From IMG/VR virus record IMGVR_UViG_3300013308_000002, positions 1 to 64,000 of that record: a stretch of DNA of 64,000 bases; one strand, given 5' to 3'. A program made the translations under genes and the position numbers. Origin of the DNA: a virus. Shown one piece after another: positions 4,930 to 23,774 of this stretch (positions are counted from its first letter, which is position 1; each line of letters starts with the position of its first letter). The notes beneath the pieces were generated by a model, which ran no database searches, had not been told where the DNA came from, and saw only the letters and a list, made by a program, of their open reading frames with translations.

Positions 4930-5563
4930 GATCCTTCATCATAAGCTCGTTTGGCGACATGAAAAGCTCGCGAACGGAAGCGACATTATCGATTGCTTTT
5001 GAGAATGGGACCGCAACCGGAATGCCGATGTACCGCTTGCTGATCCCCTCCTGCGCACGCACCAGCCTGGCGTAGTACTCCGACTCGGCGCGACGTAGCT
5101 CCAGCTCCAGCTCGTTGGCGGAAAGCTCAGGACCGGTGTTAGAGGCCGTCGGATCGAACGCTACGGTGATGCCGTCCATTCCTTCTATCGGCGAGTCGCC
5201 GGTGATATCGATTGATTGTATTTGGAGGCCGGAGATAAAGCCGAAGGCCGATGACGATCCAAGCTCAATCGCACGGAATGGCGAAATTTGAAGAGGTCGC
5301 GTAACGCAACGGCAGTTCAGAGACTGAAGGGACGGATCGAATGAGCCGCCACGAGCCTTGTCGATTTTCTTGCGTTTCTGGGTTACCAGAATGCTGCCTG
5401 CGCGCTTGCAACGCAACTTATCACTCTTCCCATCGGCGCGATTGATCGCATCCTGGATGATGCGCGGCACTCTATAGTTGCTGGAGCCGACTCGGTTGGC
5501 AGAGCGATTCCGGTGCATGGACCAGAACATATACCACGTTTCGCGAAGGTTCATTCCGTCCAC
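4913..5563 (-). CDS. hypothetical protein (216 aa)
   Basis: Long ORF with protein-like composition. Confidence 0.6.
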   Translation of the reverse strand: MDGMNLRETWYMFWSMHRNRSANRVGSSNYRVPRIIQDAINRADGKSDKLRCKRAGSILVTQKRKKIDKARGGSFDPSLQSLNCRCVTRPLQISPFRAIELGSSSAFGFISGLQIQSIDITGDSPIEGMDGITVAFDPTASNTGPELSANELELELRRAESEYYARLVRAQEGISKRYIGIPVAVPFSKAIDNVASVRELFMSPNELMMKDLDDGK

Positions 5564-5823
5564 CCATACCCTTTGGTTTCTTCATAGGACTTGCGCCACG
5601 AAGCGCGCCACCAGGCCCAGTTGATGGAGTGAAGTTTATACGGGTTGTCGTCAATCTTCAAGCCCAAAACTACGCAATCGTGACGACCTTGGCGCTTGGC
5701 ATTCGCCTGATCCAGAACTCGCGGCTGTTCACGGGCCAGAATCGGAGTGCCATCCTCGGCAAAGCCTTCAATTCGCTTTCCGTCGATTTCCATCCAGCAG
5801 CCTTCGGAGTTGATCTGGTTCAT
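5551..5823 (-). CDS. hypothetical protein (90 aa)
   Basis: ORF overlapping its neighbours by 4-13 nt. Confidence 0.55.
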   Translation of the reverse strand: MNQINSEGCWMEIDGKRIEGFAEDGTPILAREQPRVLDQANAKRQGRHDCVVLGLKIDDNPYKLHSINWAWWRASWRKSYEETKGYGWTE

Positions 5824-8647: not shown

Positions 8648-9493
8648 CTACTTGACGCTAACGAACGGAGTCGCAGAGCCAGGAATCATGGTCGTAGGCA
8701 GCTTGCCGTCCCAAGTTTCTACCTTGCGCAACTCCAGGTAGAGAGGGTTGGTTGCCATGGCCTGACCGACCAACGCGATTGCTTGGGCCTGTCCCTCTGC
8801 TCTGCTGATGGCCGCGTCTTTATCGCCTTTGGCTTGTTCGCGGACTTTATCGGCCTTCGCCGTTTCCTGGGCGACCTCGTTGACGAAGCGCGCCGTGGTC
8901 TGGTTGGCTTCGATCTTGGCGTTCAAAGCGGTGACTACCTTCTCCGGCAAACCGATCTTGCCATTCAGATAGATGTTCGTCACCACGAGTCCTTTCTTGG
9001 AGAACTCGTCACGCACCCTGGCCTCGACTTCCTTGAAGAACTGCTCTTTACCTTCACCATAAATCTTTTCGGCGGATAGCTTCGAAGATGCGTTATTCAA
9101 GGCAGTCTTCACGACTTGCGGCACGTTCGTACGAAGGATTTCGTCCATCGACTTGCGATAGGTCTGGAATAGTTCCGGAGCAGCACCATGCGCGGCCTTG
9201 ATCGTGATGCCGAGGTCCACGGTGATTTCCATGCCGTCCATATCCTGGAAGGCAATGACACCGAGGTTTTCATTCTGATCGAACGTCGGGAACTTATACA
9301 GTTCCTGGGATGGCGTGAGGAACTTCCAGCCGCTGCCTTCTTCGACCGGTTGGACGCCGGTGTCGGAGCCCATCATGTTGACGACAACGCCGGTGTATCC
9401 CATCGGGACGCGTTCGGCGCTGGTAAACAGACCGATGGCGATGATGAGGACTACGAAGAAGCCGATAAGCCGGCCGAGGGTGAGGTTAATCAT
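8648..9493 (-). CDS. SPFH/band-7 (prohibitin/HflK-like) domain membrane protein
   Basis: N-terminal TM segment, then a typical SPFH core followed by an Ala/Glu/Gln-rich coiled-coil tail (AEGQAQAIALVGQA). Confidence 0.85.
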   Translation of the reverse strand: MINLTLGRLIGFFVVLIIAIGLFTSAERVPMGYTGVVVNMMGSDTGVQPVEEGSGWKFLTPSQELYKFPTFDQNENLGVIAFQDMDGMEITVDLGITIKAAHGAAPELFQTYRKSMDEILRTNVPQVVKTALNNASSKLSAEKIYGEGKEQFFKEVEARVRDEFSKKGLVVTNIYLNGKIGLPEKVVTALNAKIEANQTTARFVNEVAQETAKADKVREQAKGDKDAAISRAEGQAQAIALVGQAMATNPLYLELRKVETWDGKLPTTMIPGSATPFVSVK

Positions 9494-10952: not shown

Positions 10953-11035
10953 TTCAGTGAACCTTTCACTATCTATCAGGAAAGGTGATTCTACTTGAGG
11001 TCAGAATCACCGTCTACAACTATTTAGGCAAAGGT
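10953..11035 (-). promoter_or_regulatory. early promoter P7 (AAATAGTTGTAGACGG-17-TAGAAT) with palindrome GGTGATTCT..AGAATCACC spanning the -10
   Basis: Read on the minus strand. Confidence 0.5.
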
Positions 11036-11671: not shown

Positions 11672-13072
11672 TTGGCCGGAGTAACTCCAATTTACACTCT
11701 CAACCCAGCACTACGATCCTTCTGGCGGACCAGGAGCCGCTACAAGGCCTTGTACGGCGGTCGGGCATCTTCCAAGTCGCACGACGCTGCAGGCATGGCA
11801 GTATATCTCGCGGCCAACTACACGCTGAAGTTCCTTTGCGCTCGACAATTCCAAAACCGTATTGATGAATCAGTTTATACGCTGATCAAAAACAAAATCG
11901 AAAATAGCCACTTCAAAGACGAGTTCTATCTAACTAAGAACTCTATCAAGCATAAAATCACCGGCTCTGAATTCCTCTTCTACGGTATCGCCCGCAACTT
12001 GTCTGAGATCAAATCCACCGAGGGCGTCGATATCCTCTGGATGGAAGAGGCACACTATCTGCAGGAAGAGCAGTGGGAAGTTATCGAGCCTACCATCCGG
12101 AAAGAGGGTAGTCAGATTTGGTTGATCTGGAACCCGGATGAGATCACCGACTTCATCTATCAGAACTTCGTGGTTAATCCTCCGGAGGACTGTCTGGCCA
12201 AGATGATTAACTGGGAAGAGAATCCATACCTTTCCGATACCATGCTCAAAGTCATCCACGACGCGTATAAGCGCGATCCGGAGAAGGCACAGCACATCTA
12301 TGGCGGAGTTCCGAAGACTGGCGGCGACAAGTCGGTGATCAACCTCAAGTTCATCATGGCCGCTGTCGATGCTCACAAGGTCCTGGGTTGGGAGCCGTCC
12401 GGAACTAAGCGCGTCGGATTTGACGTAGCTGACGACGGCGAAGATGCCAACGCGACCACGTACATGCACGGCAACGTCATTATGGAGATTGACGAGTGGG
12501 ACGGCCTGGAAGACAAAATTCTTGAGTCATCCAAGAAGGTTTACAACTACTGCCGGGATAAAGGCGCCGTCTGCACCTATGACTCCATCGGAGTTGGCGC
12601 GCACGTTGGTTCTAAGTTCTCTGAGATCAACGACGTCCAGGAAAATGGATACGTCCTATCCTATGATCCGTTCAACGCAGGCGGTGGTGTACGGGACCCA
12701 GACGAAGCCTACATGGTTCTGCCGCACGTAATCATCACCAACAAAGAGCAGTTCGCTAACATCAAAGCGCAGATGTGGATGGAAGTCTCGACTCGATTCC
12801 AGAAGACATTCGAAGCAGTTACGATGGGAATTAAGCACCCGCATGACGAACTAATCTCCATCAACAAAGATACTCTCACGCCGAAGCAACTAACTCAGTT
12901 GATGTTTGAACTTTCTGCTCCACGGAAGGACTTGGACGGCAACGGCAAGTTCAAGGTCGAGTCCAAAAAGGACATGCGCGAAAAGCGTAAGATCAAGTCG
13001 CCAAACGTCGCCGACTCCGTGATCATGGCGGCCATCTTGCCTAAGCGCGCCCCGGCCGGCTTCTTCGATTGA
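11672..13072 (+). CDS. terL: terminase large subunit
   Basis: Walker-A-like YGGRASSKSHDAAG. Length and nuclease-half features are typical of a PBSX/Terminase_6-type TerL. Followed by a terminator. Confidence 0.9.
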   Translation: MAGVTPIYTLNPALRSFWRTRSRYKALYGGRASSKSHDAAGMAVYLAANYTLKFLCARQFQNRIDESVYTLIKNKIENSHFKDEFYLTKNSIKHKITGSEFLFYGIARNLSEIKSTEGVDILWMEEAHYLQEEQWEVIEPTIRKEGSQIWLIWNPDEITDFIYQNFVVNPPEDCLAKMINWEENPYLSDTMLKVIHDAYKRDPEKAQHIYGGVPKTGGDKSVINLKFIMAAVDAHKVLGWEPSGTKRVGFDVADDGEDANATTYMHGNVIMEIDEWDGLEDKILESSKKVYNYCRDKGAVCTYDSIGVGAHVGSKFSEINDVQENGYVLSYDPFNAGGGVRDPDEAYMVLPHVIITNKEQFANIKAQMWMEVSTRFQKTFEAVTMGIKHPHDELISINKDTLTPKQLTQLMFELSAPRKDLDGNGKFKVESKKDMREKRKIKSPNVADSVIMAAILPKRAPAGFFD

Positions 13073-13082
13073 CGAACAAAGA

Positions 13083-13110
13083 AAAGCCCCAATCAAGGGG
13101 CTTTCAAGTC
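13083..13110 (+). terminator. rho-independent terminator after terL
   Basis: Stem AGCCCC-AATCAA-GGGGCT followed by a T-containing tail. Confidence 0.6.
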
Positions 13111-13304
13111 TCTCTGGCGGCATCTTATACGGCCAGACTACGTTCGCAGGCTCCAATGGCAGGTTGCATTGCAGAGTGCTGGGCTTGGACAGGCCCGAAC
13201 GCAAGTTGCTGGACACCAGCGTCAATGTGTAGGCTATCGGCTTAATCCCCATTGCAGGGCGCTCACGAACGCGCTAGCCTGGCTATTATATCGCAAATAG
13301 CACC

Positions 13305-13336
13305 CAATAAAAAGCCCTCGACATGGAGGTCTTTTT
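13305..13336. terminator. bidirectional terminator-like hairpin flanked by an A-run and a T-run
   Basis: Sequence AAAAAGCCCTCGACATGGAGGTCTTTTTATT; the stem is imperfect. Confidence 0.35.
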
Positions 13337-13352
13337 ATTCACCTGCCGAGGT

Positions 13353-13712
13353 CTAGATTTTGTCTTGGAATTCCTTCGGCATTACCTCTGCAGAATCCAA
13401 GGCTTGGACGCGTTGGATCTCAGCATTCAAGATGTCGGCGCGGACGATGTAGGCGTTGTTTGGATCTTTCAAATCCGCAGACCAACCAGCGTCGGCTTGG
13501 AGGCCGAGGTCGGAAATTGCCTTGTCCCAGAGCACGGCAGCTTCGGAATCGAGCGCCATGGTAGCGTTGGTGCCGTGAGCGATGGCCGCTTCAATGGCCG
13601 CATTCAGCGTTTTCGCGATGGCCTCTTTCTTCTTGTTGAGAAGGGCCAGATTGAACGCTGTCTTTGGGTCAAGCTTGGCGGAGGTCGGAAGTTTGGAAAC
13701 GTCGATGTGCAT
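13353..13712 (-). CDS. hypothetical protein (119 aa)
   Basis: Internal ATG with AAAGGAA SD. Confidence 0.55.
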   Translation of the reverse strand: MHIDVSKLPTSAKLDPKTAFNLALLNKKKEAIAKTLNAAIEAAIAHGTNATMALDSEAAVLWDKAISDLGLQADAGWSADLKDPNNAYIVRADILNAEIQRVQALDSAEVMPKEFQDKI

Positions 13713-13726
13713 GGTATTCCTTTCGG

Positions 13727-14125
13727 TTAAGTTCTGATCCAAAGGATCAATAGGACGACGAACGCGCCAAGGCCGAGTGCTTTAGGCCAAGACAGCGAGT
13801 AAAAATTCTCTTCCGGGGCCTTACGCTCCGGAGCCCAGACGATTTCGCTGGTCACGTAGGCAGTACGGTCCACGTACTCGGTCGCTAGCGCCTGGGCGTT
13901 GGCTTCGATTGGAGGCGGGATTCTTGACCAGCCTGGACGCGCTGGGTGGATCTGGATCGATGGCGGCGAATAGCCATCAGAAGCCTCCGCGCCGCGCCCG
14001 TAAATTGCGGAAATCGCGATGACGGCCAAAAGACCAATACCAGAAATCCATCGAGTTCGAACGTGCTCGCGCTTAGAACTCCGTAGGCCCGAAGGCGTAT
14101 CCACGAATTTACGTCTGTTTCGCAT
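13727..14125 (-). CDS. membrane protein (132 aa, 2 TM)
   Basis: Hydrophobic segments LLAVIAISAIY and LGLGAFVVLLILWI. Confidence 0.55.
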   Translation of the reverse strand: MRNRRKFVDTPSGLRSSKREHVRTRWISGIGLLAVIAISAIYGRGAEASDGYSPPSIQIHPARPGWSRIPPPIEANAQALATEYVDRTAYVTSEIVWAPERKAPEENFYSLSWPKALGLGAFVVLLILWIRT

Positions 14126-14865
14126 TATTCACTCTCCACGGATTTGGTGATTTCAACGGAACGACCGGCCTTTTGACCTGCCATATATGCAGCTTGGTCT
14201 TCACGGCTTTTCGGCGCGGCCACCGGCTTGACTTTATATCCTGGGTCGCCGAACTTTTCCGTCACAGCGATAGACTTCATCAGCACCAAAGAAGTTCCTG
14301 TAGCAGAGCTGGTCAAGCGGTCGCGCTCAACGGTCATCGCCGCGAGACGATCCGAAATTTCCAGGATGGCAGCCATCTTGAACTTTCCGCCGACACCAAC
14401 CGGGTATTTTGCATATCCTTTATCGGCCAAATACTCTTTGCAAAGACGGTCTACCGCCTCCAGCAAAGTCGTATACATTTGAATCGAAAGCGCCACATCA
14501 GATGCGTAGCCACGGAAGTTTACGCGCTTCCCGGCCTTCTTACGGTCCGCGTCGGTCTTTTTGAAGTCAACCGTCCCGTAGTCGTAGAAAGATTGGGTGT
14601 CGTTATATTTCGCGACGGAACAACTAAACACAGAAAGGTGTTGAGGGATGGCAGAGAAGAATCGCCCGGTAGGCGTCGACTCAAAATCTTCGTCATAGCT
14701 ATCGTTGATGTCGAGCGAGTCAAGCTGGTACTTATCCATCAGCTTGCGGGCGCGACTGGCCGCGATGGCCGCCTCGTTAGGCGAAGAGGAATCCGCGGCC
14801 ATACGCAAGAGCTTAGCGATGCGATCTTTGATCTTGATCAGGTCGGTGAAGTCTTCGGTGCTCAT
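14125..14865 (-). CDS. DUF2786-like N-terminal domain protein
   Basis: Motif AKLLRMAADSSSPNEAAIAASRARKLMDKY matches the DUF2786-type helix pair. Start at MSTEDF with SD. Confidence 0.55.
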   Translation of the reverse strand: MSTEDFTDLIKIKDRIAKLLRMAADSSSPNEAAIAASRARKLMDKYQLDSLDINDSYDEDFESTPTGRFFSAIPQHLSVFSCSVAKYNDTQSFYDYGTVDFKKTDADRKKAGKRVNFRGYASDVALSIQMYTTLLEAVDRLCKEYLADKGYAKYPVGVGGKFKMAAILEISDRLAAMTVERDRLTSSATGTSLVLMKSIAVTEKFGDPGYKVKPVAAPKSREDQAAYMAGQKAGRSVEITKSVESE

Positions 14866-14869
14866 TCTG

Positions 14870-14945
14870 TGTACCTTTCTGGTCGTTTCGTTTGGATGGC
14901 CTATACTAGCGCCATCCAATTTGGAAGTCTACAGCTATTTACGCT
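14870..14945 (-). promoter_or_regulatory. early promoter P8 (AAATAGCTGTAGACT-17-TAGTAT) with palindrome GGATGGC..GCCATCC around the -10
   Basis: Leader contains CCAAACGAAACG. Confidence 0.5.
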
Positions 14946-15316
14946 TTCTGGATGAAGATCGCCAGACCGGTCCCGGCATATTGGAGGCTGAGAATACCAT
15001 CGGCGTGCTGGCGCATATGGACGAGCTCCATGGTATGTCTGGTGTTGAAGGAAGCGAGCGGTTCGAAGGCATTCAACTCTTCATAGATGAGCGCGTGACT
15101 AGACGCGTCGTCCAGGTATTCTGGATCAAGCACCCGGATCTTTCCGCTGTTATTCTTCGCGCCCATCGCCTTAACGATGTAGACCGATGGCGAGGTGAAT
15201 TTATCGCCGATCTGGAGTGGACGGAGGAACAAAAGACTATGCTCGGTGAATAGCGTACGGAGTTGGATGACTTCTACTTCTTCGTGTTCCATGAGTTTAG
15301 CGTTAATAACGGTCAT
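14939..15316 (-). CDS. hypothetical protein (125 aa)
   Basis: Preceded by promoter P9. Confidence 0.55.
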   Translation of the reverse strand: MTVINAKLMEHEEVEVIQLRTLFTEHSLLFLRPLQIGDKFTSPSVYIVKAMGAKNNSGKIRVLDPEYLDDASSHALIYEELNAFEPLASFNTRHTMELVHMRQHADGILSLQYAGTGLAIFIQKA

Positions 15317-15319
15317 TTC

Positions 15320-15395
15320 ATTCTTCCTTTCTGGCTTTGGTTAAGATGGGATAATATTAATCCCATCTGATTTGGAAGTCTACAACTATCTCACC
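15320..15395 (-). promoter_or_regulatory. early promoter P9 (GATAGTTGTAGACT-17-TAATAT) with palindrome GATGGGAT..ATCCCATC around the -10
   Basis: Read on the minus strand. Confidence 0.5.
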
Positions 15396-16316
15396 CTATC
15401 CGCCGAAAAAGTTCTCGAAACAGATAGGACCAATGGACCGCTCGATGGAGAGCTTGTTCGTTAACTCCCGTCCGCAGCACGAACACTCCCCGGTGCGCTT
15501 GCCGTAGGCAACTGCTGCTGCATCAGGAGTAGAACAGGCCTCTACGATGTCCGCTTCCAGCTCGTCGGATACGCCACACCCACGGTAGAACGTACCGTCG
15601 GTAATTTTGCCAAAGTATTCATCACCGTTGGAACTTTTGACGTAAAGAGAGCCGGCATTTGCGCCATGAACGGCTGCGAAGTAAATCACAATGGACGCGT
15701 CGCCTGCCAGGAGCCGCATTTTTGGATTCCGCAGTCCGTTCTTTTTGGCCTTGGTCAACGCCTTAAGGACCGCGCTGATATCGACCTTTCCCGCCAACTG
15801 GGCGTGCTCTTCACGTACGGCAGCGGCCACTTTCTTATCTGCCAACTTCTCGATGCACTTGTAAGCTGCAGCCAGTTGCCCTGGCGTTAGCGAGCCATAT
15901 TTGCGCAGAGCTTCGCGCAACGAAAGAGAGAATGAGAAGTCCTTACCGGCGCCATTCCACCACGCGGCAACTTGTGGATGTTCGGATTCGAACACTGCCA
16001 GTTTCTGGTCCGCTTTCGCCTCCTTACGCACAGATGCCTTCTCGCGAGCCAACGCACGTTCTGCCGCTGGTTTCTTGAAGAAGAGAATGCCCTTCCCTTT
16101 GCACTTCAGACATTGCTGGTGACCCAGGGAGGATGGAGTGCAATACCGACCGGAGCCGGCGCACTTCGGGCAACGTTCCTCTACCATCACACCTTTAGGC
16201 TTGGTGCTAGTGAGCTTTGACGCGTCTTCCATCGTTGCTGGAGTGCCGGCCACGACAGGTTCGCTGTCGAAATCGTCGCCGAGGTCGTCGAATCCGGAAA
16301 AGGCTGGTGCGTTCAT
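15396..16316 (-). CDS. zinc-ribbon protein (N-terminal CPKC..CLKC; C-terminal GECSCCGR...GPIC motif)
   Basis: GAGAGG SD. Two Cys clusters. Confidence 0.6.
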   Translation of the reverse strand: MNAPAFSGFDDLGDDFDSEPVVAGTPATMEDASKLTSTKPKGVMVEERCPKCAGSGRYCTPSSLGHQQCLKCKGKGILFFKKPAAERALAREKASVRKEAKADQKLAVFESEHPQVAAWWNGAGKDFSFSLSLREALRKYGSLTPGQLAAAYKCIEKLADKKVAAAVREEHAQLAGKVDISAVLKALTKAKKNGLRNPKMRLLAGDASIVIYFAAVHGANAGSLYVKSSNGDEYFGKITDGTFYRGCGVSDELEADIVEACSTPDAAAVAYGKRTGECSCCGRELTNKLSIERSIGPICFENFFGG

Positions 16317-16397
16317 TTGGTAATCCTCTCAGTGGTGGGATATCTCTTCAGATGAGTTGATATTACTGGAGGCGGAAATGGAAGGCAACAATTTATT

Positions 16398-16583
16398 TCA
16401 GAAGGGAAAATCTTCAGCCGGAAGGCCGACCATATCCTCAATCGGTCCGTCTTTGTACGTGCCGTCGGCGTTAAACTTGCAACGGCCACTACTCATCCGG
16501 TGAGGGAAGTGGTAGCAGCCGTTTTTGCAAGTCACCTGCTTGCGCTTAGGTGGTCCCTTGCGGACGAACCTGGCCTTGTTCAC
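16398..16583 (-). CDS. hypothetical small protein (61 aa)
   Basis: ORF with Cys/His residues. Confidence 0.4.
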   Translation of the reverse strand: MNKARFVRKGPPKRKQVTCKNGCYHFPHRMSSGRCKFNADGTYKDGPIEDMVGLPAEDFPF

Positions 16584-17269
16584 GCGGAACGCTTAGCCCC
16601 ATCGCAAGGCGATTCCATATTTGGGTTGAACCGTCCCAGGATGTAATCTGGACGGCGGTTGTCTGGTTGCGGACACGCGGCGATGAGCCTCCAGCCAACG
16701 CTCAAGGAGTCCTGAAGCTTATCGGTGCAGGAGTCTTCCAGAAGCAACGTCTCATTATACGACGCGAGCGCCTGGCCTGGCATGTGGACGTCGCACTTCT
16801 GGTTGTAGATGGTCGATCCACCGTCGGTCGCTGGGAACTCGACAGACTCCAGACGCTTCATTACACGCTCCATACGCTCGATAATCCCAGGAAGGGTTTC
16901 GGAAGAAACGACTGCGCCGGACTTGACCGTGATGGTGTCGTCAACTTCCATGATTTCCAGAAGTTGATCGCCGGTGCACGCAAATGTCGGGTTAAGAAAG
17001 CGAGCTGCGCGCTTATATTCGTTTGCTTCGTCGGCGCTCACCTCAACGGCCTGAAGGGTGATTCCGATTCGATCCAACAGAGCAACGCGCTTTTGGACCA
17101 GCTCGCGCCAGCGTTCGATATGGGACTCGTCATCCTCGATTTTCATGTTAGGCGAGCGAGCCGGAGCCGGGGTTTCTTCAGTCGCGGCAGCTTCGATCAG
17201 TCGCGCCTTGATGCGCTCGCCAATGTAATAGTCGCCGATGGTCTTCATAGTTACCAGAAAAATCTTCAT
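16580..17269 (-). CDS. hypothetical protein (229 aa)
   Basis: AAGGAG SD. Confidence 0.6.
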   Translation of the reverse strand: MKIFLVTMKTIGDYYIGERIKARLIEAAATEETPAPARSPNMKIEDDESHIERWRELVQKRVALLDRIGITLQAVEVSADEANEYKRAARFLNPTFACTGDQLLEIMEVDDTITVKSGAVVSSETLPGIIERMERVMKRLESVEFPATDGGSTIYNQKCDVHMPGQALASYNETLLLEDSCTDKLQDSLSVGWRLIAACPQPDNRRPDYILGRFNPNMESPCDGAKRSA

Positions 17270-17449
17270 TCTTGCCTTTCTCCTTTGATCTAGTATTTAA
17301 TTCTGAGGCCGTTTTCGCCTGGATGTGGCATAATTATTGAGGCCGGACGTTGGTTATGCTCTGGCGCGCAATATCGCGCCACCTTTACTGGGCCAGAAAT
17401 GATAGCCGCGATGAGCGCGGATACAACCGCCAGCCAGATGGCATTTTGG

Positions 17450-17824
17450 TTACTCAAGGCAACTCCAGACAACGGCCACTTCCTTATCGATGGCCGAGAA
17501 AATGCCGAACGTTTGACCGGTGCCTTTTGACATGATAGCGCCTTCTTTATTGGTGCTGCGACGAACACCAAACTTGTTCGGTTTCTTTTCGAGAACGCCG
17601 GACACCATGACAAGCTCGAAATCCTCCTTCACGACGGCAAAGACATTTCCATAGTCGATGATGGTGGCGCGCCCGTGCTCGGAGTATTCGCCAATCTCAT
17701 TGGTGTCAAAGTTTACGGATGCCGTCGCTTCCTTGCAACCGTAAACTTTCGCGGCGACCAAGCCGGCCTGAGCGACCATAGGAATGAGCAAAGAAGCGGT
17801 CAATAACAAGATGCGAGTTTTCAA
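17450..17824 (-). CDS. secreted protein with signal peptide (124 aa)
   Basis: TTG start. Product begins MKTRILLLTASLLIPMVAQA. Confidence 0.55.
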   Translation of the reverse strand: MKTRILLLTASLLIPMVAQAGLVAAKVYGCKEATASVNFDTNEIGEYSEHGRATIIDYGNVFAVVKEDFELVMVSGVLEKKPNKFGVRRSTNKEGAIMSKGTGQTFGIFSAIDKEVAVVWSCLE

Positions 17825-17839
17825 ATCAATCCACCGGAG

Positions 17840-18037
17840 TTAGAAATCAAGTTGTTTTTCGTCGGAGCGGCTGACTTCGATGCACTCAACGCGCTTATAG
17901 CTGGAAGAAACCATCTGCCGATCCCACTCGCAATCCGACTTGGATGCGTAAATCTTTTCGGAGATTGGCTCTGCGTGGCAATTATATTCGCCGTAGCAGA
18001 TGATTTGGGCTAGCACATAACCTAGAAAAGCGTTCAT
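17840..18037 (-). CDS. Cys-rich small protein (65 aa)
   Basis: Has its own promoter P10. Confidence 0.45.
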   Translation of the reverse strand: MNAFLGYVLAQIICYGEYNCHAEPISEKIYASKSDCEWDRQMVSSSYKRVECIEVSRSDEKQLDF

Positions 18038-18039
18038 TA

Positions 18040-18100
18040 CGTCACCGTTTCGTTGTTTGTGAGGTGATATTAGGCCAACTCAAACGCACGGTCAAGCTGT
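18040..18100 (-). promoter_or_regulatory. early promoter P10 (TTGACC-17-TAATAT), leader CAAACAACGAAACGG
   Basis: Read on the minus strand. Confidence 0.45.
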
Positions 18101-18436
18101 TTCTGAATAAATCCCTAAAATTTCTTGCGTCATCATCCAGACATACGGCGCTGCGTTGGTTTCGTTGGAGATTCGATACAGGCCTTCGCGCACGATGTTG
18201 ACGTAGCCGCTGCCTTTGTCCGTGCCATCGTCGTACACCACTCGGTCGCCGATGGCGTAGACGTCCTTCTTTACCAGTCGCGGCGACACGTCAGCCTTCA
18301 CGGACACCAGCCACGGCTCAACGACCGTCCCAGGTGGCGCGCCATTTGCGAGTTCGTTGGCGTCAGAGTCCAGATCGAACACGCCAATTATCACTCCGCC
18401 AGAAATGACGATATGCACTATGTTGCCAACTTCGCT
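18092..18436 (-). CDS. hypothetical protein (114 aa)
   Basis: Internal ATG MSEVGN with GAGGAA SD. Confidence 0.55.
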   Translation of the reverse strand, partial: SEVGNIVHIVISGGVIIGVFDLDSDANELANGAPPGTVVEPWLVSVKADVSPRLVKKDVYAIGDRVVYDDGTDKGSGYVNIVREGLYRISNETNAAPYVWMMTQEILGIYSETA

Positions 18437-18592
18437 CATGGTTAGTTCCTCAATAGAAGTTGCGATGATATACCTATCATAAGTTATAGGCAAATAAGTT
18501 AGTTGCATTAACACTATATAATGGCCGATTGCCGTGCAAGTACAACAACACTATACTACATATATCCAGGCCAATTGTTGCGAACTATAAAC

Positions 18593-20860
18593 ATGAAACT
18601 ATTCCAATGGAACTTGTGGGGAAAGAAACCAGAAGTTGAAGATGCCAAAGACGTCCAGACTTTTGCTAAGTCCCATGACCCTTTGGATCCACTAGCCAAA
18701 GCCCATTCAGGCGGCAGCGGTTGGAAAGATGAGCCTACAAACCCATTCGCAGTAACTATCGACCAATATCCGGTATACAACTCCGGCGCGATGGACTCGG
18801 CAGACTCCGGCAATAGCGTAAAGGCAGCGTCGCAGGGTGCACAGGGCTCTTACGCCGTCCCGCCCTCCGTCCAGGAGTGGTACAACTCGCAAGGGTTCAT
18901 CGGATACCAGGCTTGCGCCCTAATCGCCCAGCATTGGCTCGTGGACAAGGCGTGCTCCCAGTCCGGCGAAGACTCCGTGCGTAACGGATGGGAAATCAAG
19001 ACCGACGGCAATGCTTTGAGCGATGAAGAGCTCAGCAAGATCAAAACCCAAGACATCAAGTTCAAGATCAAAGAGAACTTGGTTGAGTTCAACCGATTCA
19101 AGAATATATTCGGCATCCGCGTTGCCATCTTCGAAGTCGAAAGCGACGACCCAAAGTATTACGAGAAGCCATTCAACATCGATGGCGTCACCGAGGGCTC
19201 GTATAAGGGCATGTCTCAGGTCGATCCTTATTGGATGACGCCAATGATGACTTCTGCCTGTACTCAAAACCCGGCAGACAAGCACTTTTACGATCCGGAA
19301 TATTGGGTCATCAGCGGCAAGAAGTATCACCGCAGCCACCTCTGCATCGCTCGTGGGCCGGCTCCGGCAGACATCTTGAAGCCGACGTACATCTTCGGCG
19401 GTATTCCGTTGACGCAGCGCATCTATGAGCGCGTGTATGCCGCTGAGCGTATTGCGAACGAAGCGCCTCTACTTGCGCTCAGCAAACGAACGACGGCCAT
19501 CCACGTCGACGTCGCAAAGGCGATGGCAAACGAAACTTCGTTTGTCGAGAAGTTGCTTTTCTGGGTCAAGTATCGCGACAACCACGCGGTGAAAGTTCTT
19601 GGCAAAGATGAGTCCATGGAGCAGTTCGACACTAACCTGTCAGACTTTGACTCCCTCATCATGAACCAATACCAACTTGTCGCGGCCATCGCCAAAACAC
19701 CGGCCACCAAGATCCTCGGGACTTCGCCTAAAGGGTTCAATGCAACAGGAGAGTTTGAGACAGTCTCTTATCACGAAGAGTTGGAGTCTCTTCATGAGCA
19801 CACTTTCGATCCGATGTTGGAGCGCCATTACTTGCTGACTATGAAGTCGATGGGTCACGAAGTCCAAGTGTCCATCGTTTGGAATCCGGTCGATTCGATC
19901 TCGACTCAAGTCCGCGCAGAACTTAACGCGAAGAAAGCTGCCGCGCATGAAATCTATGTAAATGTAGGCGCGGTATCGCCAGACGAAGTTCGCCAAACCC
20001 TTCGTGATGATTCTACTTCTGGCTATAATCGCCTTTCGGATGAAGAGGCCAACAAAGAGCCAGGTGCGTCGCCAGAGAACTTGGCGGAGTTTGAGAAGGC
20101 CGGAGCCGAAGAAAACCGGACGGCAGCAGCGCAAATCAGCGCTGGATTAACACCACGGCCTGTGACCCACGGCAACCATCCAGCGCCAACCGCTATCACG
20201 CCTCAACCAACGGTCGCGAAACCGGCACCTAGTGTTACAGAGGGCGTATCTGGGCCTTCGATCCAGACCGGAGTCGTCGAAGGACTCAAGGCGTTGATCG
20301 CCAGCTTGAACGAAATGTCAGACAAGCTTCTGCCTAATGGCGTGGACCTGCCAACGCACAACTCGCCTGGAGTCAAACGGACCGTCCAGCCTGGGATTGT
20401 AGGCGACGAGCCAACCACCGTGGGCGCGGGAGCCTTGGTGCCTGCTTCAGACCCAGATAACCTTCCGCGCATCAAAATGCACGATATGGTAGCGGTCATC
20501 GAGAACCATCGCGGCTCTATTCGCCAAGGAAAGAACGGCGATTGGCAGATCAAGATGGCGCACCACTACGGGTTCATCAAAGGGACGGACGGTGCAGACG
20601 GCGACGAGGTTGACTGCTTCATCGGGCCTGACTTGGAATCCAGAAAGGTCTTCGTAGTCAACCAGAAAAAGCAGGATGGGACTTTTGACGAGCACAAAGT
20701 GATGCTCGGATTCCACGGACCTATCGAAGCAAAAGATGCTTACCACGCATCGTACAAAGACGGCTGGACCGGCTTCGGATCTATGCATCCGATGGATGTT
20801 GACGACTTCAAAGCATGGTTGACCTCTGGCGATTGCAACCAGCCTCTGGGTAACATCTGA
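18593..20860 (+). CDS. portal protein with C-terminal family-I inorganic-pyrophosphatase-like domain
   Basis: Lies between terL and the head morphogenesis gene. It is about 756 aa from the ATG at 18593. The C-terminal roughly 130 aa carry YGFI..DGADGDEVDCF, which matches the PPase signature D-[SGDN]-D-[PE]-[LIVMF]-D-[LIVMGAC], plus SYKD. Confidence 0.65.
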   Translation: MKLFQWNLWGKKPEVEDAKDVQTFAKSHDPLDPLAKAHSGGSGWKDEPTNPFAVTIDQYPVYNSGAMDSADSGNSVKAASQGAQGSYAVPPSVQEWYNSQGFIGYQACALIAQHWLVDKACSQSGEDSVRNGWEIKTDGNALSDEELSKIKTQDIKFKIKENLVEFNRFKNIFGIRVAIFEVESDDPKYYEKPFNIDGVTEGSYKGMSQVDPYWMTPMMTSACTQNPADKHFYDPEYWVISGKKYHRSHLCIARGPAPADILKPTYIFGGIPLTQRIYERVYAAERIANEAPLLALSKRTTAIHVDVAKAMANETSFVEKLLFWVKYRDNHAVKVLGKDESMEQFDTNLSDFDSLIMNQYQLVAAIAKTPATKILGTSPKGFNATGEFETVSYHEELESLHEHTFDPMLERHYLLTMKSMGHEVQVSIVWNPVDSISTQVRAELNAKKAAAHEIYVNVGAVSPDEVRQTLRDDSTSGYNRLSDEEANKEPGASPENLAEFEKAGAEENRTAAAQISAGLTPRPVTHGNHPAPTAITPQPTVAKPAPSVTEGVSGPSIQTGVVEGLKALIASLNEMSDKLLPNGVDLPTHNSPGVKRTVQPGIVGDEPTTVGAGALVPASDPDNLPRIKMHDMVAVIENHRGSIRQGKNGDWQIKMAHHYGFIKGTDGADGDEVDCFIGPDLESRKVFVVNQKKQDGTFDEHKVMLGFHGPIEAKDAYHASYKDGWTGFGSMHPMDVDDFKAWLTSGDCNQPLGNI

Positions 20861-21699: not shown

Positions 21700-21719
21700 A
21701 CCACGTGTTGATTGCCGCT

Positions 21720-21908
21720 ATGGAATCAACGAATGCCAAACTAAGTCGAGAAAATCAAATGTACGCAACCGCCAAAAAGTTGCAATTCAGCAATGTCTTT
21801 GAAGGTTTCCTGAAGAAATATGATAGACCGGGATTCTTCAGCATTAGATGGGCCGCAGTTGACGTCGTAGTTATCGCCGCAAGTTTGATCGTCGTTTATG
21901 CAAAGTAA
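21720..21908 (+). CDS. small C-terminally membrane-anchored protein
   Basis: Internal ATG; C-terminus WAAVDVVVIAASLIVVYAK. Confidence 0.35.
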   Translation: MESTNAKLSRENQMYATAKKLQFSNVFEGFLKKYDRPGFFSIRWAAVDVVVIAASLIVVYAK

Positions 21909-21926
21909 CATGGTTTCGGTGTAATT

Positions 21927-22245
21927 TACTTTCCTCCAACCGGCCGCAAGTTGGTTGGAGGAAAGTTGGAGGAAAGTAAGAGCTGCGGATTACGTGGGCT
22001 CTACACTACTTTCCTACTTTCCCAATAAAAATTGCGTTTTTCAAGAGCTATAAGGAAACGTATATATCAATGTACTACTACTGCTTACTCTATATCCTCT
22101 TAAAATTTAAAATAATTAAGGAAAGTAGGAAAGTAGAGTACAAGAACGAGTCAAGCCAGCGGCCTGCTTGACTATTACACCTGTCTGAACTTTCCAAATA
22201 ACTTTCCACGCGGCAATAACATCAGGAAAGTAGGAAAGTACTGTT
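21927..22245. repeat. array of at least 11 GGAAAGT / ACTTTCC heptamers as alternating-orientation doublets, plus a 14-bp-arm palindrome and an AT-rich core
   Basis: ACTTTCCTCCAACC-N11-GGTTGGAGGAAAGT at 21928-21966. Doublets at about 21956-21977, 22007-22023, 22118-22140, 22188-22210 and 22223-22243. AT-rich stretch at 22025-22120. Confidence 0.8.
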
Positions 22246-22382
22246 AATCTCAATGTATGGCCATACTCTGACGTACAGTCACGGCGACACCGAAAGAGTT
22301 TCTGCGACCATTCGAATTAGTTGCCCCTTGTGTAACAGTCGAATATACTCTCCAGCAACTAAGCCAACCGCGAATATGTACG

Positions 22383-23774
22383 ATGCCTACCGCACGCGAA
22401 ATCGATGACAACGGGTTCTTACTTATCAAGGCATGTCCCATCACGTCATTCGGTATCTTTGATTACTCTGCCGGCCAACTTGGCTTGCCGGGTGATCCTA
22501 ATCGCATTGTTAAAGTATTCCGGCCTGAGTCCGCAGTAAATGATCCAGCGGCAATCGAGTCGTTTAAAAACGTCCCGTTGATTAATGATCACGAAATGTT
22601 GTCAGGCTTTCAAGGCGACAAAGATAGTGCTGCTCCGGAAGACTATGGTGTTTCGGGTATCCTTACTTCAAACGTCTATTATGCCAAGCCATGGATGCTT
22701 GGTGATTTGAAAGTGTTCTCTCGTGAGATGCAGGCTCTGCTAAGCAAAGGCAAAAAGGATTTGTCGCTTGGTTACTCCTGTGACTTCGAAGAGAAGCCCG
22801 GTGTTTGGCAAGGCCAAGCTTACGAGATTGTCCAAACCAACATGCGCGGCAACCACATCGCTCTGGTTGATGAAGGTCGCGTGCCGGGCGCAAGGGTATT
22901 GGATGGTTTATGTTTCGACCATCTCAGTTTTGACTTCAAACCATCCGATAAGGAAAACACCATGCCAAAGTCCCGCAAGACTATGGACAAGGCAGCGCGT
23001 GATAGCGCCGTCGAAGAACTGAAAACGCTCGTGCCTGCGTTGGCCAAAGCTCTTGAAGGCTTTCTGGCTGAAGAAGGCGCGGAACCTGAACATCAGGAAG
23101 GCGCAGCACCGGCCGTCGCTGCAAGCGCCGCTCCAGCGGCCGAGAATACCGACTCGCCGGCCGAACCAGCCGCTGCCGCTGCTCCTGCTCCTGAAGCCGG
23201 CGCGGAGCCTGTCGTAACACCACAGGCTGGCAACGAAGCTGGCGGTGATATCCAGGCCCTGATCGCTGCCGCGAAGACCGCCCTGGCCAACCTGGAGGCC
23301 GCAGCATGTCCACCGGGTGCAACCAATGAAGAACTCGCAGCCGACCAAACCGAAGGCTTGCAAGAGCAATCCGCAAACAACGGTGGCGCGGTCGGTACTG
23401 ACGCAGAAGGCCAAGAGCCGGGTAAAATCAACGATAACGAGGGCGGTGAAATGGAAGGCAACCCAGGCAATAAAGCGTCGGATGCTGCGGTTGGTCGTTT
23501 CTACGCTGATCTTGCTGCTAAGACTGGCCTCTACGACCGGCTGTCTAAAGTTGTTGGCGCCTTTTCTCACGGCGGTATGGACGCACGCCAAGTTGCTGTT
23601 TATGGCGTGAAGAAGCTCGGCCTCAAATGCGCTGACGGCATGGAACACGTCGCCGTTGATGCGTACCTCGGCGCTGTCGAAGCTGCCGCAAAACGCACCA
23701 GCACCCAAGTTAGTGCCAAGGCCGCAGACGCTGCCGTTGGTTGCCCAGAAATCGATGCGTACATCAAAGGTTAA
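22383..23774 (+). CDS. scaffolding-like protein (N-terminal DUF2213-like domain, Ala/Pro/Glu-rich low-complexity middle)
   Basis: Immediately upstream of the capsid gene. Contains a long AAPAVAASAAPAAE... low-complexity region. Confidence 0.5.
   Translation: MPTAREIDDNGFLLIKACPITSFGIFDYSAGQLGLPGDPNRIVKVFRPESAVNDPAAIESFKNVPLINDHEMLSGFQGDKDSAAPEDYGVSGILTSNVYYAKPWMLGDLKVFSREMQALLSKGKKDLSLGYSCDFEEKPGVWQGQAYEIVQTNMRGNHIALVDEGRVPGARVLDGLCFDHLSFDFKPSDKENTMPKSRKTMDKAARDSAVEELKTLVPALAKALEGFLAEEGAEPEHQEGAAPAVAASAAPAAENTDSPAEPAAAAAPAPEAGAEPVVTPQAGNEAGGDIQALIAAAKTALANLEAAACPPGATNEELAADQTEGLQEQSANNGGAVGTDAEGQEPGKINDNEGGEMEGNPGNKASDAAVGRFYADLAAKTGLYDRLSKVVGAFSHGGMDARQVAVYGVKKLGLKCADGMEHVAVDAYLGAVEAAAKRTSTQVSAKAADAAVGCPEIDAYIKG

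Follow-up and report, generated by a model that had tools for sequence, protein, structure and literature searches.

How should a block of genes that reads against its neighbours, in the midst of the packaging and head genes of a phage, be interpreted? The question is raised by IMG/VR virus record IMGVR_UViG_3300013308_000002, of which the first 64,000 nucleotides (positions 1 to 64,000, hereafter the window) have been analysed. There the terminase gene terL and the portal gene, both on the plus strand, are separated by 5.4 kb hosting ten open reading frames (ORFs) on the minus strand. A first-pass annotation of the DNA had seen at this site about 5.3 kb of opposite-strand genes, wedged into a junction normally tight, and had taken them for inserted moron or accessory cargo. 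The block is there, and its size was correctly perceived, but comparison with related phages leads to a different view of its origin. By its sequence, the window qualifies as the genome of a new, divergent PB1-like myophage, and the 5.4 kb are in all likelihood the portal-proximal half of the leftward early region typical of the PB1-like (Lindbergviridae-type) family, equipped with a homologue of gp12 of phage 14-1, a putative RNA gene, and cassettes turning over in a way reminiscent of the promoter/stem-loop elements (PeSLs) of T4-type phages.

Eighty terL-containing viral contigs were retrieved, terL, portal and the ten ORFs were placed on them by tblastn, and the presence of the interval ORFs was recorded in a matrix of 16 lineages (L numbers denote the sequences compared). 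The layout terL, opposite-strand block, portal recurs in every PB1-like relative examined, including Pbunavirus (Pa193, 14-1), Tabernariusvirus, Myosmarvirus, Kylevirus, Burkholderia phage WTB and about 15 uncultured relatives. The interval hosts 13 minus-strand genes in Pa193 (gap 6.5 kb), 14 genes in 14-1 (~7 kb), seven in the Myosmarvirus Serratia phage WR01 (L003; 3.4 kb), five in tabernarius (2.2 kb) as well as in Pantoea phage Kyle, and four in WTB. Alignment of relatives had been proposed as the way to tell insertion from ancestral arrangement, and it speaks against insertion. In all relatives in which terL identity is at least 60% the gap measures 0.7-7 kb, with one opposite-strand ORF or more inside it; the two flanking genes adjoin (~130-290 bp) only in relatives in which terL identity is 51% or less. 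The tight junction is thus a property of distant relatives, not of the PB1-like family.

The genes within the block tell the same story. For nine of the ten ORFs, at least three other lineages possess a homologue in this interval, and the gene order is kept. In the matrix, o264 has been found in 12 lineages, o306 in six, o61, o132, o140 and o65 in five each, o124, o229 and o129 in four each (the window, L086, L006 and L011); o125, which has no homologue there, is the sole singleton. The order o140 ... o61 ... o306 ... o264-o132 agrees with that of Pa193. Composition is ordinary. The GC content of the block is 0.529 versus 0.530 for the genome, and the GC content at third codon positions (GC3) of every block ORF (0.58-0.68) falls in a range bracketing terL and portal. 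Conserved layout, shared syntenic genes and ordinary composition imply that the layout is ancestral to the family, and that the content has been mostly inherited within the sub-clade. Nucleotide identity with known phages (Pa193, Tabernariusvirus tabernarius, Myosmarvirus phages, Erwinia phage TropicalSun) attains 72-77% in megablast searches, in terL and portal only; terL is 75% identical to its counterpart in Pa193, and 87% to that of L006. Homologues of the C-terminal domain of o229 sit across terL both in Pa193 (L001 4625-4936) and tabernarius (L002 7066-7320), hence the two halves of the early region exchange genes. Rather than of an island between terL and portal, these sequence comparisons speak of terL as the lone rightward gene within a leftward early region, and the variable gap size characterizes the block, at the level of sequence, as a zone of gene turnover. 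In L086, where terL is 77% identical, a 122-aa gene (5439-5807) lies in the block on the portal/terL strand, beside the gp12 homologue.

Transcription signals link the block to the early genes located upstream of terL. The motif AAATAGTTG, allowing one mismatch at most, is found at 24 sites, versus 10.3 +/- 3.3 in shuffled sequences, none of 100 shuffles reaching 24. Sites lie in intergenic gaps of the block (14932, 15383, 16386) as in the upstream early block (2355, 7387, 11017). The fuller unit (stop codon) AAATAGTTG-TAGAC(G/T)-N17-TA(G/T)(A/T)AT occurs at 14931 and 15382 in the former, and at 11016 and 7386 in the latter, in agreement with the early notion that both share one promoter family. 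Related promoters of the type TTGxxx-N16/17-TAnnnT are found at 16385, 17426, 18095 and 18493. Taken together, these motifs yield at least six predicted promoters in the 5.4-kb block. The leader CATCGAAACGAA(A) follows directly the -10 region of many early promoters (7386, 4279, 56182, 14931, minus strand), and CATCGAAACGAA is found also after the promoter of gp12 in 14-1 (L087). Native transcripts of 14-1 have been analysed by ONT-cappable-seq (ONT, Oxford Nanopore Technologies), which revealed 26 sigma-70-like promoters and transcription units of 0.8-1.2 kb (PMC10914365); number and spacing of the promoters in the block agree with such short units. The host sigma-70 RNA polymerase would plausibly read the block as at least six short units, starting at P(o140), P(o65), P(o229), P(o306), P(o125) and P(o264), from promoters that may be written as AAATAG..T(A/T)GAC-N17-TAnnnT.

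Some of these promoters are associated with stem-loops. The units upstream of o264 and o125 (see the table) are paralogous, and have a 15-nt core, TGTAGACTTCCAAAT, in common. Perfect 9-bp inverted repeats, located between -35 and -10 or around -10, occur at 15344-15368, 14892-14919 and 10984-11011, and an 8-bp perfect repeat is found in the promoter at 2312-2331 (unit 2334, minus strand). Stems of at least 8 bp are present in four of 14 candidate minus-strand promoters, versus 1.1% of random 47-nt windows. An orthologous promoter keeps its stem with differing sequence, by compensatory changes, in four phages, the arms being GGTGATTCT / AGAATCACC in the window, GGCGATTCT / AGAATCGCC in L006, GCTATTAT / ATAATAGC in L086 and GCGATT / AATCGC in L011. 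Stem-bearing promoters of relatives have been noticed at 9396 in L006, 11048 and 6787 in L086, and 8751 in L011.

Between the two paralogous units resides o125, for which a single relative has been found among 1.84 billion representative proteins. In L086 the homologues of o306 and o264 adjoin, with a single unit between them and no gene in the o125 slot. In L006 homologues of both units enclose an unrelated 114-aa ORF. In L088 the position directly upstream of the DUF2786 gene is taken by a homologue of o125, again enclosed by two units that have the same stem, TTCAGATGG/CCATCTGAA. Judging from these sequences, o125 behaves as a promoter-flanked ORFan cassette in a slot of ~0.45 kb. The cargo hypothesis, inapplicable to a block that is present in relatives and has ordinary GC and GC3, holds for this one slot. 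The PeSLs of T4-type phages begin at the stop codon of the upstream gene, located in A/T-rich sequence; next comes a sigma-70-like promoter, and the stem-loop lies mostly between -35 and -10 or over -10 (Arbiol et al. 2010, PMC2839356). ORFans are flanked by these units, through which modules are shuffled (PMC2839356; Comeau et al. 2014, PMC4122927). The gene content of the block may similarly change via cassettes bounded by promoter and stem-loop units analogous to PeSLs, recombination between units being the plausible mechanism of exchange. A literature search turned up no account of PeSLs from PB1-like phages. Since the phage is PB1-like and not T4-type, its units are called PeSL-like, and are not assigned to PeSLs proper. 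They may be exploited to track down ORFans exchanged in recent times, o125 for instance, and such ORFans are candidate host-range or counter-defence genes.

Only one gene of the block has a characterised relative. The product of o306 is 43% identical over its full length (E 3e-78) to PP141_gp12, the DUF6011 protein encoded by ORF12 of 14-1, and matches phrog_4046 (2e-99) and PF19474 (7.5e-12). Seven cysteines (49, 52, 69, 72, 278, 281 and 299) are invariant in the gp12 family. The AlphaFold2 model of o306 has a predicted local distance difference test (pLDDT) score of 90; no fold relative was found in PDB, and the PDB sequence search returned nothing below E 0.1. Gp12 of 14-1 (310 aa) is listed with RpoA as target and transcription as process (PMC6466130). 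It reportedly acts on the alpha subunit to inhibit transcription by the host (PMC6748951), and has been proposed to direct RNA polymerase towards promoters specific to the phage (PMC10914365, PMC7576135). By homology, o306 may likewise bind RNA polymerase at its alpha subunit, and shut down or redirect host transcription. The early suggestion that the block carries host-manipulation or anti-defence cargo fits in its first half at least this gene; as to the second half, searches against PADLOC, Pfam, PHROGs and NCBIfam gave no anti-defence match. The homologue of the sole characterised early protein of the family is thus placed in a new divergent lineage, and close relatives do without it.

The terL end of the block has a different nature, and would correspond to a separate structured-RNA gene set between two terminators. 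The ~200 bp separating the latter contain no credible ORF, and are 88-90% identical in the window and L006, versus only 42% for the neighbouring o129 proteins. In a hairpin with loop CGTATAAGAKGCC a 5-6-bp stem survives complete sequence replacement. The arms are TCTGGC/GCCAGA in the window, TCCACC/GGTGGA in L006, CCCAGC/GCTGGG in L086, CCGAC/GTCGG in L011, where the hairpin is located across terL, and GGTAGC/GCTACC in others. A second invariant stretch, GACGCTGGWGTCCAGCAA, recovered further copies. The covariance model R1, built from seven sequences, scores the element of the window 131 bits, and ten other copies 106-165 bits; the L086 sequence scores 35 bits. Related copies are located at L006 11423-11577 and L130 4717-4869, and in L138, L139, L143, L114, L320, L291, L316 and L269. 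In a 12-sequence alignment fitted to the model, which favours the structure, 98.7% of the cells are paired and 18 of 29 pairs exhibit compensatory double changes, a count reached by none of 500 shuffles; slid controls have 26-48% paired cells and 2-6 compensatory pairs. An unfitted MAFFT/RNAalifold analysis detects double changes in 17 of 31 pairs. Covariation establishes the structure of the 13109-13263 RNA, and G-U pairs and downstream T-runs assign it to the minus strand. In L011 only the terminal hairpin is recognisable (9293-9318, minus strand), across terL and with loop CGTATAAGAGGCC. A 3' extension, GCGGCAGATGGCTTAAT...GCGGCCACC...TGTAAATGGAGTC, is conserved in L011, L086 and L114, and its sequence suggests a longer variant of the RNA.

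Most copies are preceded by a -10-like hexamer or a terminator, and most are followed by an intrinsic terminator. The L143 copy has no terminator, and leads into a ribosome-binding site and a 65-aa ORF. The core measures ~155 nt, and the transcript of the window would be ~200 nt long. The copies reside in unrelated phages. Among cultured phages the element has been found in unannotated gaps of Touem01 (Pseudomonas syringae) and SF3 (recorded host Streptomyces flavovirens), upstream of head-morphogenesis genes; both were retrieved by blastn with the commoner variant of the RNA, and the RNA of the window retrieved none of the cultured phages. In Rfam 15 neither the element of the window nor five related loci matched a family at the gathering score, only noise being detected at E up to 10, and scanning the window for tRNAs and against Rfam likewise gave no hit. 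Matches to the 15-mer CCGTATAAGAKGCCG in viral contigs were mostly due to chance, and were retained only where the flanks were complementary. In bacterial genomes an 18-mer hit 94 loci, all scoring 25 bits at most with the model and judged chance matches; nothing therefore indicates that the RNA was copied from a gene of the host. The last hairpin was also likened to a type I-F CRISPR repeat (CCGUAUA), a resemblance too superficial to be claimed. Because the sequence downstream is antisense to terL, a stand-alone RNA is favoured in the window, and from its sequence a regulatory or decoy RNA is the most likely option; elsewhere the element is possibly a mobile cis-acting leader. Two further steps can be taken together, and appear to us about evenly balanced between right and wrong: that the RNA belongs to an undescribed, horizontally mobile phage RNA family (~150-nt core, usually with its own terminator), having regulatory or decoy roles in infection, and that the PB1-like early region diversifies by PeSL-like exchange, a process reported to date from T4-type phages only. 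A structured RNA with strong covariation support, common to unrelated phages and missing from Rfam, is with the cassette mechanism the part of this locus worth follow-up.

Coordinates of the features of the terL-portal region, in window positions. Longest ORF is the span given by the longest-ORF rule; percentages are identities of homologues.
Feature	Position	Strand	Longest ORF	Remarks
terL	11672-13072	+		PF04466 (Terminase_3), 1e-33
Terminator hairpin	13082-13105	both (terL, +; minus-strand RNA gene)		nine-pair stem, then T-run
Structured RNA candidate	13109-13263	-		six helices; invariant motifs UUGACGCUGGUGUCCAGCAA and CCGUAUAAGAUGCCG
TATAAT, -10-like hexamer upstream of RNA candidate	13285-13290	-		read from sequence; kept in L006
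Terminator-like hairpin with T-run	~13308-13337	-		end of o264-o132-o129 unit; read from sequence
o129	13353-13712	-	13353-13742	same-interval homologues in L006, L011, L086
o132	13727-14125	-	13727-14125	small protein with two transmembrane segments, N-terminal KFVDTP motif (from translation)
o264	14125-14865	-	14125-14919	DUF2786; DUF7168 sub-threshold (24.6 bits vs 25.5-bit cut-off)
Unit upstream of o264	14883-14940	-		TAA stop, AAATAGCTG, TAGACT-N17-TAGTAT, 9-bp stem enclosing -10
o125	14939-15316	-	14939-15316	ORFan cassette gene
Unit upstream of o125	15340-15391	-		AGATAGTTG, TAGACT-N17-TAATAT, 9-bp stem AGATGGGAT/ATCCCATCT around -10
o306	15396-16316	-	15396-16316	N-terminal CxxCxGxG zinc ribbon (DnaJ/anti-TRAP-like), C-terminal DUF6011 zinc ribbon
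Promoter of o306	16350-16394	-		sigma-70-like, AAATTGTTG, TTGCCT-N17-TAATAT
o61	16398-16583	-	16398-16583	Cys/His-rich mini-protein; phrog_5016; homologues in L006 (74%), L011, L086, Pbunavirus
o229	16580-17269	-	16580-17269	phrog_8380, phrog_4796
Promoter of o229	17399-17426	-		TTGTAT-N16-TATCAT; 5-bp CCGCG/CGCGG stem in spacer; read from sequence
o124	17450-17824	-	17450-17824	predicted secreted; N-terminal signal-peptide-like MKTRILLLTASLLIPMVAQA (from translation); homologues in L006 (59%), L011, L086
o65	17840-18037	-	17840-18037	Cys-rich mini-protein; homologues in L006 (86%), L011, tabernarius, Myosmarvirus WR01 (L003)
Promoter of o65	18067-18095	-		sigma-70-like, TTGACC-N17-TAATAT
o140	18092-18439	-	18092-18514	first gene of block; phrog_5124, 2e-16
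Divergent promoter region	18440-18592	both		36% GC vs genome 53%; sigma-70-like sites on each strand
P(o140)	18465-18493	-		inside divergent promoter region
P(portal)	18529-18557	+		inside divergent promoter region; TTGCCG-N17-TATACT
portal	18593-20860 (probable start)	+	18521-20860	PF06381 (Phage_portal_3), 7e-85

Under the longest-ORF rule four starts (TTG, GTG or upstream ATG) reach too far, into promoter regions, and the likely true starts are those adopted in the table for o264, o140, portal and o129. From ATG 14865, o264 encodes 246 aa identical (100%) to P0001, a database protein that derives from a metagenomic contig of 69.8 kb; the promoter of o264 has its -10 within the longer TTG ORF. 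From ATG 18439, o140 encodes 115 aa, as in L006. The ATG at 13712 is probably the start of o129, the ORF of which reaches TTG 13742. Portal probably starts at ATG 18593, and P(portal) sits 36 nt upstream of it; in the annotation of 14-1 a sigma-70 promoter occupies the equivalent spot. The C-terminus of the portal protein (residues ~650-767) is an InPase-like domain (PF18823, 1e-41), a fusion called also in L086. The hairpin next to terL looks, from its sequence, like a bidirectional terminator, and its position is kept in L006, L086 and L011; the hairpin ending the o264-o132-o129 unit has equivalents in L006 and L086. The terminators and the AT-rich divergent promoters perceived on the first inspection as bracketing the block are thus in place at its two ends. 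Two ORFs have been rejected as genes, one at 17290-17613 overlapping the conserved o124 and a promoter region, the other at 12890-13252 extending over both the RNA element and terL's 3' end.

As for the remaining genes, o264 is the most widely conserved of the interval, and occurs in unrelated phages too. Its model (pLDDT 87) has no informative structural neighbour, the PDB sequence search found nothing below E 0.1, and a literature search on DUF2786 found nothing functional. The small membrane protein o132 weakly matches Pa193_026 and phrog_4999. An ORF of the FVDTP type follows the DUF2786 gene in several lineages, L023 and L016 included, and this arrangement suggests that o264 and the FVDTP small membrane protein form a gene pair. 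The position of o140 beside portal is conserved in Pa193, L006, L011, L026 and Kyle. When all ten ORFs were searched against Pfam, PHROGs, NCBIfam and PADLOC, only DUF2786, the sub-threshold DUF7168, DUF6011 and PHROGs of unknown function were matched. The first-pass annotation had listed a DUF2786-like and a double zinc-ribbon protein, now backed by profiles (DUF2786; DUF6011 plus CxxCxGxG), and two-transmembrane, signal-peptide and Cys-rich mini-proteins, which have been recognised by reading the translations. It had also proposed to check each ORF against defence and anti-defence profiles; defence families (PADLOC) and annotated anti-defence families (Pfam, PHROGs, NCBIfam) gave zero matches. 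The small secreted, membrane or Cys-rich proteins of the block presumably serve host takeover. Elsewhere in the window, an SPFH/Band-7 family protein (PF01145, 9e-23) is encoded at 8648-9493, minus strand, in the upstream early block. Between the Mu-F-like gene and that for the DUF2213 head-maturation protease lie ~680 bp (21700-22380) devoid of ORFs that reach 100 aa; this gap contains a hairpin with a perfect 14-bp stem (21928-21966), the GC content of 22001-23000 is 45%, and a similar gap precedes the protease gene in 14-1.

What else could the block be? A moron or accessory island recently acquired by this phage, and wedged into a tight terL-portal junction, would account for the adjacency of the two genes in distant relatives, for the opposite orientation with own promoters and terminators, and for the different gene content of different genera. 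It is nonetheless highly improbable, as the block resides in every PB1-like lineage examined with nine ORFs in synteny, its GC and GC3 cannot be distinguished from the rest of the genome, and the same promoter family and leader are found genome-wide and in 14-1. However foreign it looks, the block is the ordinary early region of a large phage family in therapeutic use, and flagging it as an insertion would be wrong. Even less credible, in fact barely conceivable, is a block coding for proteins of the virion or of its assembly. The location between terL and portal, amid packaging and head genes, is all that speaks for it; the genes lie on the opposite strand under early-type promoters, match no structural Pfam or PHROG category, and have homologues annotated as hypothetical, non-structural proteins in relatives. 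The recurrence of the block in relatives, which had been named as evidence against cargo if its genes were structural, was observed as to position, not as to structural function. A block chiefly devoted to anti-defence, in which the unknown small proteins (o129, o229, o124, o65, o140, o125) inhibit bacterial immunity, is doubtful, though it deserves more credit. Such genes typically reside in early, promoter-dense, high-turnover regions bearing ORFans, o125 is an ORFan cassette, and content differs between genera. Yet no annotated defence or anti-defence family was hit in the four collections searched, the sole gene with a characterised relative targets RNA polymerase and not immunity, and DUF2786 and o140 are too widely kept for a strain-specific counter-defence.

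The RNA element calls for a separate evaluation. It could be a site acting at the DNA level (packaging, replication, protein-binding), or a cis-acting leader, and not a stand-alone RNA gene. The element adjoins terL, the copies in SF3, Touem01, L114 and L143 lie just upstream of head-morphogenesis or other genes, and that of L143 runs, terminator-less, into a ribosome-binding site. Against this, only one of the strands is compatible with the G-U pairs and the compensatory changes, an intrinsic terminator follows most copies on that strand, the genomic contexts are unrelated, and in the window the downstream sequence is antisense to terL, which excludes a leader role there. A DNA site or leader is therefore improbable, and a stand-alone RNA gene is preferred. 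The interpretation of the whole block as an inherited early region meets obstacles of its own. Homologues of gp12 are absent from L006 and L011, where the function is therefore dispensable or has been replaced, and from Myosmarvirus and Kyle; hence the function does not extend to the whole family. In BcepF1-like and other relatives no more than one to three ORFs are left in the interval, so the term ancestral covers the layout and the DUF2786 and o140-type genes, not necessarily all ten ORFs. Promoters and terminators of this phage are predicted from consensus matches and conservation, early timing is suggested by promoter type and by the published accounts on 14-1, and a literature search found no time-resolved expression data for Pbunavirus. 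The stems of the PeSL-like units lack U-tracts and are putative terminators at most, terminator function being a defining property of PeSLs, and several promoters of the family are stemless.

Three known systems offer terms of comparison. Classical morons reside in late operons of temperate phages, and usually have a deviant composition. Like the morons of lambdoid phages, o125 has its own promoter and is missing from relatives; in contrast to them, the block as a whole has been vertically inherited and is ordinary in composition. The closest parallel is the gp04-gp17 region of Pbunavirus (PB1, 14-1, Pa193), in which a plus-strand terL, a minus-strand block of 6.5-7 kb, a divergent promoter and a plus-strand portal follow one another. 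The DUF2786 protein, gp12 (DUF6011), the portal-adjacent o140-type gene and the small ORFs similar to o61 and o132 are homologous and co-ordered in the two, and the sigma-70-like promoters have AAATAG and CATCGAAACG features in common. Differences are also marked. Nucleotide identity is ~72-76% in terL and portal, and none is detectable in the block; Pbunavirus has 13-14 ORFs versus 10, a methyltransferase and several other Pbunavirus ORFs being missing from the window, and o129, o229, o124, o125 and the RNA element of the window are missing at the Pbunavirus site. Within this parallel, o306 is a full-length homologue of 14-1 gp12 (306 vs 310 aa), with the same Cys motifs at the same genomic position, whereas RpoA binding and the effect on transcription are known for 14-1 gp12 only. 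The third system is provided by the PeSLs. The phage families are unrelated, the units of the window have a consensus TAGAC -35 and no polyG/polyC stems, and terminator activity and mini-circles are properties of T4-type PeSLs, the units described here being predicted from sequence. Yet, at 14883-14940, 15340-15391, 11016 and 2334 the same ingredients, A/T-rich stop codon, sigma-70-like promoter and stem-loop, are combined and repeated through the early region, and the first two of these units flank an ORFan absent or replaced in close relatives. Cassette shuffling as described for T4-type phages is probably at work in the PB1-like family as well.

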